From positions 1 to 53,758 of the forward strand of contig JYFJ02003164.1 of the NCBI GenBank assembly GCA_000934665.2: a DNA stretch of 53,758 nt, written 5' to 3'. Under the pieces are notes generated by a model. It saw nothing but the letters and a program-made list of their open reading frames with translations. It made no database searches and was not told the origin of the DNA. A program made the position numbers and the translations under genes. Positions 23,717-26,700 of this stretch are shown piece after piece. Position 1 is the first letter of the stretch; the number at the start of each line of letters is the position of its first letter. The stretch comes from Catajapyx aquilonaris. Taxonomy: Eukaryota.

Positions 23717-26700
23717 ATGCTGGTCACAATGCTTTGCTTGTGCCTTTTCCTCTTGCCTTCAGAAATTGAATCATGTTTCTTCGGAGGGTGAGTCACTTTT
23801 CTTTATACTCAACTATACACAGAATTGAACTTCAGATGTATTTCCTGTTTCAATTAGTAAGTTATATCCATATGCATAGCGCAGAAAAGTACATTTTGTG
23901 ATGTCAATAGGTTTATTGAGTAGAATTAGCATGGTTTTTTCTGCACACTTGTATTAGAGCTCTTTATTAACCTTTAAGAGTAGCACAATTATTACTCTAG
24001 GATATCTAGTTTGAAAATTAGAATTAAAAGTTACTGATTACACTTCACATCGGGTCAGGGGCGTAACAAGACTCTTGGGGGCCCTGGGGCAAAAAGGTAC
24101 GCGGGGCCCCCTCCATAGTAATACCAGTTATTAGCTCTTGGTAATACGTAATGCAAGACGTAATGATTACGTATAACCAGCGGCGTAGCCAGGAAATTTG
24201 TAAGGAGGGGGGGGATTACGTGAGGGTGGAGCGAAGAGGCCCGTCGCAGGCGAATTTTTTTTTGCTGTTCAAGTTCACACAAGCTTAGGTGAATGTAACT
24301 GACCAGTTAGTTAGTTATTTTTAACTGGTTTGCATGCTGCCTGGTTCCTTTCGTCAACATGCTCAAAATTTAGACATCCAAAATAATCCAAAACACTATA
24401 TCCATCCAGTTTATTGACATCTGCCAGTTATTTTCTTTAAATGAAAATGCTGAAAAGGTCAGCAAAATGCAAGATAATTACTACTGGCAAATGACAGTGC
24501 CCACCAAAAGTTTTTCAGTGTTTTTGTACCTTACTGACACTGCGACTGCGAGAGTCTGACAGTGAGATAGTGAGAGGTCCCCCGAATTGATTGGATCGAA
24601 CCCGCTTTCTTACGTCTTATAGAATATAGAATATAGGTTATAGCTGGTTATAGACGTTAGGCCTATTATGGATTTGGGGGTTTCCTCAAAATTTTCTAAA
24701 ACTCGTCGGAAAATTCGGGGGCCCCTTTGCTCGGGGGCCCTGGGGCAGTCGCCCCACCTGCCCCTATGGTAGTTACGCCCCTGCATCGGGTCCTTCATAT
24801 GAAAAGATGGTCCATGAGTATTTTATCAGCCTTTAATGTAAAACTCAAGAGAAGAACCATGTACCAGTTTGCAATTAAAATACTGTCATTTAATCTCGTT
24901 TATTACTAGCAATACGTAGTTTTTATTTTTATTTTTGAATGACTTCAAAAGGCACATAAAAAGGTAAGGTACCATTTTGACAACATACTAGGAATCACTG
25001 ACAAGACATTTGGGAAAGACTAGCAAACCAGATTGAGTGGTATAGAGGGCACTTACGCTCTTTGGAATCAGACTACTTGTTATTCATCTTTGCCACTCAC
25101 AAACACTGATAGTAATTTTAATTATTGAGATGAGGTTGACATGTTATACTGCTCACTGATGCAGTCACAGGAGCTGTTTCCGGTATAATTTCTAAAACTT
25201 TACTTGCCACTCCTTGCGTAGCACTAATATCCGACAATATAATTTTTTGTTCATTACCCCACGGGGGAGCTATCTACCCCTTAGGGGGGGGGGGTGGATT
25301 ACCACCATTGGTATTTATTTGGAGCGTGTTAAGAGAATCTTATTAATTACTCCAATGGTTGGTAGGAGGGGATGTGCAAAGTGCATGTGCGCTGTCGTTG
25401 AGTGGTCATTTTGTGAACTCCCCCGGGTGGATTAGTCTTTAGGAAATTTCCACCCGAAATGAAGCCAGAGATGGCCCAACTCTGCACGGATAAAGGTGGG
25501 AACCCCGGGTGGGGATTGAACCCGGGACCTTCATATCCGTGGGCGCACGCGTTACCGCGACGCCACTTCATCTCCCTACAATATAATATATTACCGTACT
25601 TATTAAAACCTAAATAATCGTCTAAACACTGCAAAGAACTCGCAAAATGGTTATAAGCACAATAATTAACACTAGAAGCACAGGACATCAAAAACGAATA
25701 TGTATGTTTAAACTAACACGAGATTTCCTCAAGCAGAGGCGAACCAGAACCAGCACCTAATAATTATGAGCAGCCCACGGTAAGTGAATCGCTCAATTTT
25801 GACAACGGAATTCCTACACACCTTTTAATTTCAGCAAAAGAGAGTCCGCATGGCAGTCCCGTCGAAAGGGAAGATGACTAAAGCCGGACCTCGAAAAAAT
25901 TGCATGGCCACTCTCAGTCCTAACAACAATAGAGCAAACAATAAGATACCAACGTACAAACCTCAACCAACTCCCTCAGATAAAGTCTATCTAGATGACG
26001 TGAACATACCTGGTAGCACGCCAGACAACGGTGAAGGAACAGGTGAATTTGACAAGGGGATAGGATCAAGGGGGAAAGATGGTCAAGGGATAGATTACTT
26101 AGGCATAGAGCCTGGACTAATTGAGACCTCGAAAGATGACCTAGGTAGAGATGGTGGGAACAATCTTTCGGATGGAGGCGGTGGCCCTGGAACGGGAGGC
26201 GGTGGCTCTGGAACTGGAGGCGATGGCCCTGGAACGGAAGGCGGTGGCTCTGGAACTGGAGGCGATGGCCCTGGAACGGAAGGCGGCGGCTCTGGAACTG
26301 GAGGCGATGGCCCTGGAACGGAAGGCGATGGCCCTGGAACGGAAGGCGGTGGCCCTGGAACTGGAGGCGGTGGCTCTGGAACGGAAGGCGGTGGCCCTGG
26401 AACTGGAGGTGGTGGCTCTGGAACGGGAGGTGGTGGCTCTGGAACTGGAGGTGGTGGCTCTGGAACGGGAGGCTCCGGAAAAGGAAATGAGGGCAAAGGA
26501 GGCAGTGTCTATGGTGACTACAAAAATAAGAAAAAGAAAGATGTTCAATGGCAGGGAGGCTGACGAAATGGTTTTTTGCCTAAATTATCCTAATCAACAG
26601 GAAACGAAGTGGACACATACCCTGATGACGAAATGTGGAAAAAAATATCTTTAGATCCGCCTGCAGTCAGGTACAGCGACAGCCACTGCAGATGGATTGG

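Follow-up and report, generated by a model that had tools for sequence, protein, structure and literature searches.

The micro-inserts found in the window, i.e. the whole 53,758-nucleotide stretch of Catajapyx aquilonaris DNA analysed here, are TSD-flanked joins of two TIR tips, that is, scars of the type left by P-element excision. Very probably, they mark the donor sites of a single non-autonomous transposon family of the P superfamily, referred to below as the focal family. Scars of this type are already known from fly experiments, and the case described here adds a natural example to an established mechanism, plausibly a variant in the depth of the cut. The scars are functionally inert and have no function here; they account for short palindromic indels that escape repeat annotation.

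Micro-inserts of the window and their parent elements

At 24118-24147, CAGTTATTAGCTCTTG stands between two copies of GTAATAC; the identical 16-mer recurs at 37888-37903 between GTTAGAC and GTTAGAT, and CAAGAGCTAATTAGCTCTTG at 47233-47252 has one CTACAGT on each side (Table 1). A preliminary description had read these sites as three scars of a single element family, with the 16-mer as the start of its TIR, and had proposed to count the 16-mer genome-wide, to tabulate the flanking 7-mers and to look for a longer element with the same terminus. The sequences and flanks of all three sites are as it described. In the genome searched (285.6 Mb in 20,583 contigs, of which the window is C1597), the 16-mer CAAGAGCTAATAACTG is strongly enriched, with 306 exact copies against none for its reversed control and about 0.2 expected from composition, so that its recurrence cannot be ascribed to chance. 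Between exact 7- or 8-bp repeats, the window holds two inserts with palindromic ends, and each of 20 shuffles holds none. The 20-mer of 47233 recurs on C168 with different flanks and is also present on C1123, the latter match concerning the sequence with its flanks set apart.

The longer element with this terminus is present as well. Specifically, 135 of the 306 matches run on as ...GAGA, i.e. they are exact ends of a 21-bp TIR, CAAGAGCTAATAACTGAGAGC, of which the 16-mer is the start. Among the 100 TIR-end matches listed, 15 contigs carry an inward-facing TIR pair, and the elements so bounded measure 629-2,426 bp; their TIRs are perfect over 21 bp in 13 cases and over 19 bp in two, the subterminal sequence differs between the two ends, and the interiors have a common core that is varied by deletions and nested inserts. 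The 7-bp TSD of these elements is exact in 11, shows one mismatch in two and two mismatches in one, and is absent in one; a fly-like 8-bp TSD was considered and fits none of the 15. The flanking duplications recur elsewhere, and the target profile derived from 53 scar flanks is like that of 58 element ends (nine flanks of an amplified repeat having been removed beforehand), symmetrising to G-T-A-N-T-A-C. Hence the focal family is a non-autonomous DNA transposon with a 7-bp TSD and a GTANTAC-like target, and the elements and the junctions together support the assignment of the scars to one family whose TIR begins with the 16-mer. The target preference reaches past the TSD, with T three bases outside at 38 and A one base outside at 27 of the 58 element ends, which suggests a 13-bp palindrome as the target. 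A metagenome scan for the 21-mer TIR gave no matches.

Table 1. Scars and host repeats in the window
Feature	Position	Strand	Remarks
Left TSD copy GTAATAC, 7 bp	24118..24124	+	fits the target consensus of the focal family
One-sided scar, focal TIR bases 1-16	24125..24140	-	joined to the far TSD via TG/CA microhomology with the opposite tip
Right TSD copy, 7 bp	24141..24147	+	sequence reading
Host MITE, earlier target of the element	24056..24783		8-bp flanking duplication CATCGGGT
Sister MITE copy without scar	7855..8454		unrelated insert at 7925-8131 with 8-bp duplication
One-sided 16-nt scar with TSD (GTTAGAC/GTTAGAT)	37881..37910	-	passive copy in an amplified repeat
Inner inverted-repeat unit	37780..38001		composite repeat hosting the amplified scar
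Two-sided 20-bp scar between two CTACAGT	47226..47259		11+11 TIR bases overlapping at AT
Two-sided 23-bp scar of the second P family (C5446/L157) between two GCCCGAC	52558..52594		scar at 52565; exact 7-bp TSD

The scar at 24125 lies in a MITE that is probably hAT-like. As the preliminary description had it, the sister copy of this MITE lacks the 16-mer, but it holds a different insert at the same spot and so offers no clean empty site. This insert (CAGTGG...CCACTG, the left end of which has an additional CAG) occupies the GTAATAC site within an 8-bp duplication, GTAATACG, and its removal leaves a single GTAATAC. Among 15 host-MITE copies that match the left arm, the scar is carried by one, a different nested insert such as that at 7925-8131 by 13, and something else by one; since only one copy carries it, the 24125 scar is a single independent event. 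None of the sites inspected, 24118 included, was seen both occupied by a full element and excised. Read contigs on 21900-26000 (four runs of one sample) contain, in all four runs, a joint that skips 35 bases over the scar, its short side being 20 bases; it may stem from a paralogous MITE copy.

Site 37888, by contrast with the reading of three scars, is a passive copy of a single old scar in an amplified repeat: scar and flanks are common to all 30 loci returned, for which the best 40 of 383 candidates were scored, a choice that leaves scar-free copies unsampled. The one-sided set (the 16-mer followed by a non-A base) comprises 135 sites, and of the 100 among the matches listed, which were sorted by hand, 61 have the flanks of this repeat. 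A repeat that held one scar and multiplied later thus accounts for site 37888 as well as for about 60% of the listed 16-mers that are not TIR ends. The other 39 listed rows include 17 with an exact 7-bp TSD, five with one or two mismatches, four with a TSD shortened at the junction, seven two-sided scars, five without duplication, and one variant element end. The very high density that three scars in the window had seemed to imply does not hold either, for the repeated 16-mers are mostly element ends (135 of 306) or the one amplified scar. By extrapolation, independent scars with intact ends would number about 200-300 in 285.6 Mb, or about one per Mb rather than one per 18 kb, older mutated scars being excluded from this figure; the window is richer in scars than the genome average.

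Many long inverted-repeat elements lie throughout the window, and tandem arrays occupy 28303-29300 (25-bp units), 26134-26553 (21-bp units) and 44952-45384 (50-bp units).

Affiliation with the P superfamily

As the focal TIRs enclosed no transposase in the loci examined, we infer the membership of the focal family in the P superfamily, which appears quite likely; that the family works like P can be said with high confidence. P-superfamily TSDs are 7 or 8 bp long (an excerpt of PMC3698922), and that of the focal family is 7 bp, exact in 11 of 15 elements. Its termini are P-like, too: in a hand comparison, bases 1-17 of the 21-bp focal TIR are identical in register to the fly P tail CATGATGAAATAACATA (as given in an excerpt of PMC2895639) at 11 of 17 positions, including AATAAC at positions 9-14, with a binomial p of about 9e-4 at 0.26 per base, or 6e-3 without the terminal CA. 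Two TIR-bounded P-transposase elements of the same genome also have 7-bp TSDs, namely GTATAAC (C1253) and ATATTAC (C5446).

The preliminary description had also envisaged a THAP/P transposase within the focal TIR, and none turned up in the loci examined. The genome has at least 31 matches to PF12017 and at least 87 to PF21787; the focal TIR is absent around 30 of the 31 and 30 of the 87, respectively, and from 31 longer stretches near matches. Conversely, no transposase lies between the focal TIRs in the 15 paired copies or behind the long single ends, many TIR ends meeting contig ends, and tblastx and tblastn comparisons of element interiors with P loci and P proteins returned nothing real. 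A sister element of 3.7 kb lies on C534, with a 7-bp TSD, a TIR identical to the focal one at 14 of 20 positions in register, and a subterminal match at the same offset (62 bp, 74%, E 5e-4 against the 15 focal elements). It encodes a THAP domain above cutoff, and THAP only. THAP by itself is not P-specific. A search with this THAP found three other genome matches; in the stretches examined, none of them is accompanied by the focal TIR or by a P core.

Several apparent linkages were rejected. A PF12017 match on C534 lies outside the sister element and therefore does not prove linkage. A P-type frame on C1331 is situated 6.2 kb behind a 5' TIR; an assembly gap and hAT-, Transib- and other transposase-like fragments intervene, and no 3' TIR follows over a further 9.9 kb. 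Moreover, this frame shares 92.5% identity with a transposase on C2299 whose surroundings lack the focal TIR. An inverted pair starting with CAAGAGC around a transposase on C378 lacks a TSD, and its ends are dissimilar. The C1331 stretch behind the gap (L119:450-9010) is a dense patchwork of short transposase-like fragments, presumably hAT-, Transib- and P-like to judge by their motifs, and may be a transposon graveyard or a piRNA-cluster-like region. On C2310 (L180:2246-6273), a P-type element has a TIR perfect over 32 bp, its first bases being TAAGG rather than CA.

The lack of a transposase linked to the focal TIR in the loci examined, together with a sister THAP that has no adjacent P core, would be compatible with excision scars of some other superfamily with a 7-bp TSD and long TIR tails. 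This we consider quite unlikely: the focal TIR matches fly P in register, TSD length and target are shared with the two P elements of the genome, and a long staggered cut, of 17 nt in the fly, is described as a distinguishing feature of P elements in an excerpt of PMC7776569, which calls the route to this end structure unclear. The same source describes cleavage and strand transfer by the P transposase as GTP-dependent.

Fly P offers the closest comparison. As in Drosophila melanogaster, both TSD copies are kept and TIR-tip remnants are joined at 1-3-bp microhomologies; blunt or templated-insertion joins and near one-sided forms have their fly counterparts, too (excerpts of PMC2895639). Unlike fly P, the focal family has a TSD of 7 bp (8 in the fly) and a TIR of 21 bp (31 in the fly), and its scars are natural ones read in an assembly rather than induced.

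1360/Hoppel, of the P superfamily, likewise has short TIRs and many non-autonomous copies. Its TSD is of 7 bp (an excerpt of PMC3698922), with which that of the focal family is compatible. Galileo likewise has a 7-bp TSD, with the consensus GTAGTAC against G-T-A-N-T-A-C (excerpts of PMC2775673 and PMC3688188); its TIRs, however, are long and internally repetitive (PMC2775673, in part), whereas the perfect match of the focal TIRs stops at 19-21 bp, beyond which the ends of the element differ from each other; on this count, the Galileo membership suggested earlier is rejected. BuT5, a MITE moved by a divergent P element, resembles the focal family as a non-coding partner, about 1 kb long, of a P transposase, and differs in its 3-bp TIRs, 16-17-bp sub-TIRs and 9-bp TSDs shared with the P partner; this partner has been identified (all from an excerpt of PMC3698922), and none was found for the focal family in the loci examined. 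For zebrafish THAP9, the portion of PMC10983969 used here gives no tail length.

Excision junctions

The origin of the scars can be envisaged as follows. Elements with the 21-bp TIR would enter GTANTAC-like sites and duplicate 7 bp, a step documented by the paired copies. If the chemistry is that of fly P, a P-type transposase acting in trans would then excise focal elements by a staggered cut, leaving on each flank a TSD copy to which the first ~16-17 TIR bases remain attached as a single-stranded 3' tail. Host end joining would pair these tails at 1-3-bp microhomologies, trim the flaps and fill in, a pathway suggested by the observed anatomy of the junctions. Pairing of TG at TIR bases 15-16 with CA of the opposite tip would give the insert of exactly 16 bp at 24125, and other tail pairings would give the longer forms. 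Finally, one scar would have sat in a repeat that multiplied afterwards, as the loci related to 37888 attest.

The junctions were collected with two patterns. A loose two-sided pattern has 189 genome sites against 8 in the control, about 39 of the 50 listed being TIR-derived; a stricter one, which asks for 13 TIR bases at one of the sides, yielded 159 rows, of which the 100 listed correspond to 86 distinct sites. Besides the 16-bp form, there are scars of 19, 20, 22, 24, 27 and 29 bp. The commonest two-sided scar is the 19-bp form (32 of the 86 listed sites); in the 20 of these 32 whose flanks were examined, the flanks are unrelated in all 20, and the TSD is exact in 12, with one mismatch in three, two mismatches in one and none recognisable in four. 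A clean TSD is thus missing in four of 20 scars of this form, as it is in five of the 39 listed non-amplified one-sided rows. Most joins are at 1-3-bp microhomologies, as expected of two annealed 3' tails: CT with AG yields 19 bp, TG with the terminal CA 16 bp (the 24125 insert), AT the 20-bp palindrome at 47233, and TA 22 bp, while the 27- and 29-bp scars are symmetric pairings about a central mismatch. A minority of the focal junctions are blunt or contain short AT-rich insertions. Several hundred natural junctions of this kind constitute a record of germline end-joining preferences in a non-model animal.

Two other origins of the inserts have to be weighed. They might be endpoints of internal deletion or aborted gap repair, formed with no programmed long staggered cut, considering that the copies of 629-2,426 bp show many internal deletions and nested inserts and that one deletion breakpoint falls at base 16. 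Random deletion has no hard edge, however, and none of the 86 listed two-sided sites passes base 16 although the TIR extends to 21; furthermore, the C5446 family has an edge of its own at 19-20, and the junctions fall into the same types as those tabulated after P excision in the fly (excerpts of PMC2895639), so that this explanation is largely refuted already and seems highly improbable. That the 16-20-bp units are themselves mobile micro-elements making 7-bp duplications, as identical units at many unrelated sites with TSDs could suggest, has a next to negligible probability, given that the 16-mer has only one complete end, that the many junction forms each come from a microhomology or a blunt tail join, that the target profile of the scars equals that of the long elements, and that the high 16-mer count is largely due to one amplified host repeat.

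Depth of the staggered cut

Under the excision reading, the longest TIR prefix kept in a scar bears on the length of the tails. In a hand count of the 86 listed focal sites, this prefix is 13 bases at 18 sites, 14 at three, 15 at 57 (one of them mutated), 16 at eight, and 17 or more at none. At L003, a deletion derived from an element has its breakpoint directly behind base 16, at a CTG microhomology. Among the matches listed, symmetric products of the 15/15 type number at least six and those of the 16/16 type at least five, against one possible 17/17. A genome search for base 17 retained outside element ends, with a pattern blind to sites that have A two bases further on or C at one of the ends, returned four sites: a 16-nt scar with a TSD starting with A, a variant element end, and two ambiguous junctions, which could be either microhomology joins (17+10 and 17+14) or blunt ones (16+11 and 16+15). 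Because these two can be read as keeping base 17, we do not regard a strict 16-nt cut as established.

In fly P, excision leaves 17-nt 3' tails (Chan, Yu and McVey, excerpts of PMC2895639); in Table 1 of that work, the commonest tail-to-tail join is 16+16 (14 isolates), followed by 17+17 (5), out of 68, and 17 bases are retained in many of the junctions with insertions. If the fly pattern, with its mode at n-1 and its edge at n, is carried over, n would be 16 for the focal family. In favour of 17 are the in-register match with fly P and the limited options for pairing at the last bases, which leaves a focal tail of 16 nt only moderately favoured and 17 nt a weaker contender. The 17-nt overhang assumed in the preliminary description is accordingly supported as regards long TIR-derived tails, but its exact length is not, the scars leaning to 16.

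The second P family served as a positive control, with P transposase domains between its TIRs and a 7-bp TSD. Its C5446 element (5,015 bp, TSD ATATTAC) has between the TIRs a 592-aa frame with PF12017, PF21787, PF21788 and PF21789 above cutoff and no THAP in that frame. Genome-wide, its scars fill 97 rows, all listed, at 55 sites, against 0 and 2 in controls; as flanks are known for one of the 55 (52565), amplified copies may be present among the others. The longest prefix kept (hand count) is at most 16 bases at 18 sites, 17 at two, 18 at four, 19 at 24, 20 at five, and 21 and 22 at one each. At least 18 TIR bases are thus retained in 35 of 55, most often 19, and 11 of the 55 scars are the exact palindrome of 36 bp with the join at AT, which corresponds to the commonest fly join displaced by three bases. 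From these prefix lengths and palindromes, the C5446 family appears to leave tails of about 20 nt, which short templated synthesis before joining could have lengthened.

The search patterns for the two families differ, so that only the upper edges can be compared. Set beside the cut at 17 in fly P, the edge at 15-16 in the focal family (base 16 at the utmost) and that at 19-20 in the C5446 family suggest that the depth of the stagger is probably specific to the family within the P superfamily, about 16 nt in the focal one and about 20 nt in C5446, and not fixed at 17. The fly tail ends with the motif ACATA, which lies three bases deeper in the C5446 TIR, and the scars are shifted likewise; since motif and scars shift together, the cut may follow an internal TIR motif and not the distance from the tip. 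If so different tails, ~16 and ~20 nt, do coexist in one genome, they would provide natural variants for testing what sets the cut, with both depths read out under one host repair, and natural scars would map transposase cut sites from an assembly alone. In the literature searched, which consisted of main texts with few subscription papers, we found neither a stagger specific to the family nor a genome-wide account of natural P-type scars; this is weak evidence of absence.

Further traces of P families were seen in passing. At L019:644-1089, there is a non-autonomous element of 446 bp, derived from the C5446 P element and flanked by a 7-bp duplication. L055:2528-2545 is a one-sided scar of a P family with an 8-bp TSD (C2376, L173) that keeps 17 or 18 TIR bases, a single example. 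Finally, a 31-bp insert with palindromic ends (CAAAGAG...CTCTTTG) between exact 8-bp duplications at L118:8207-8237 is probably the scar of a further family.
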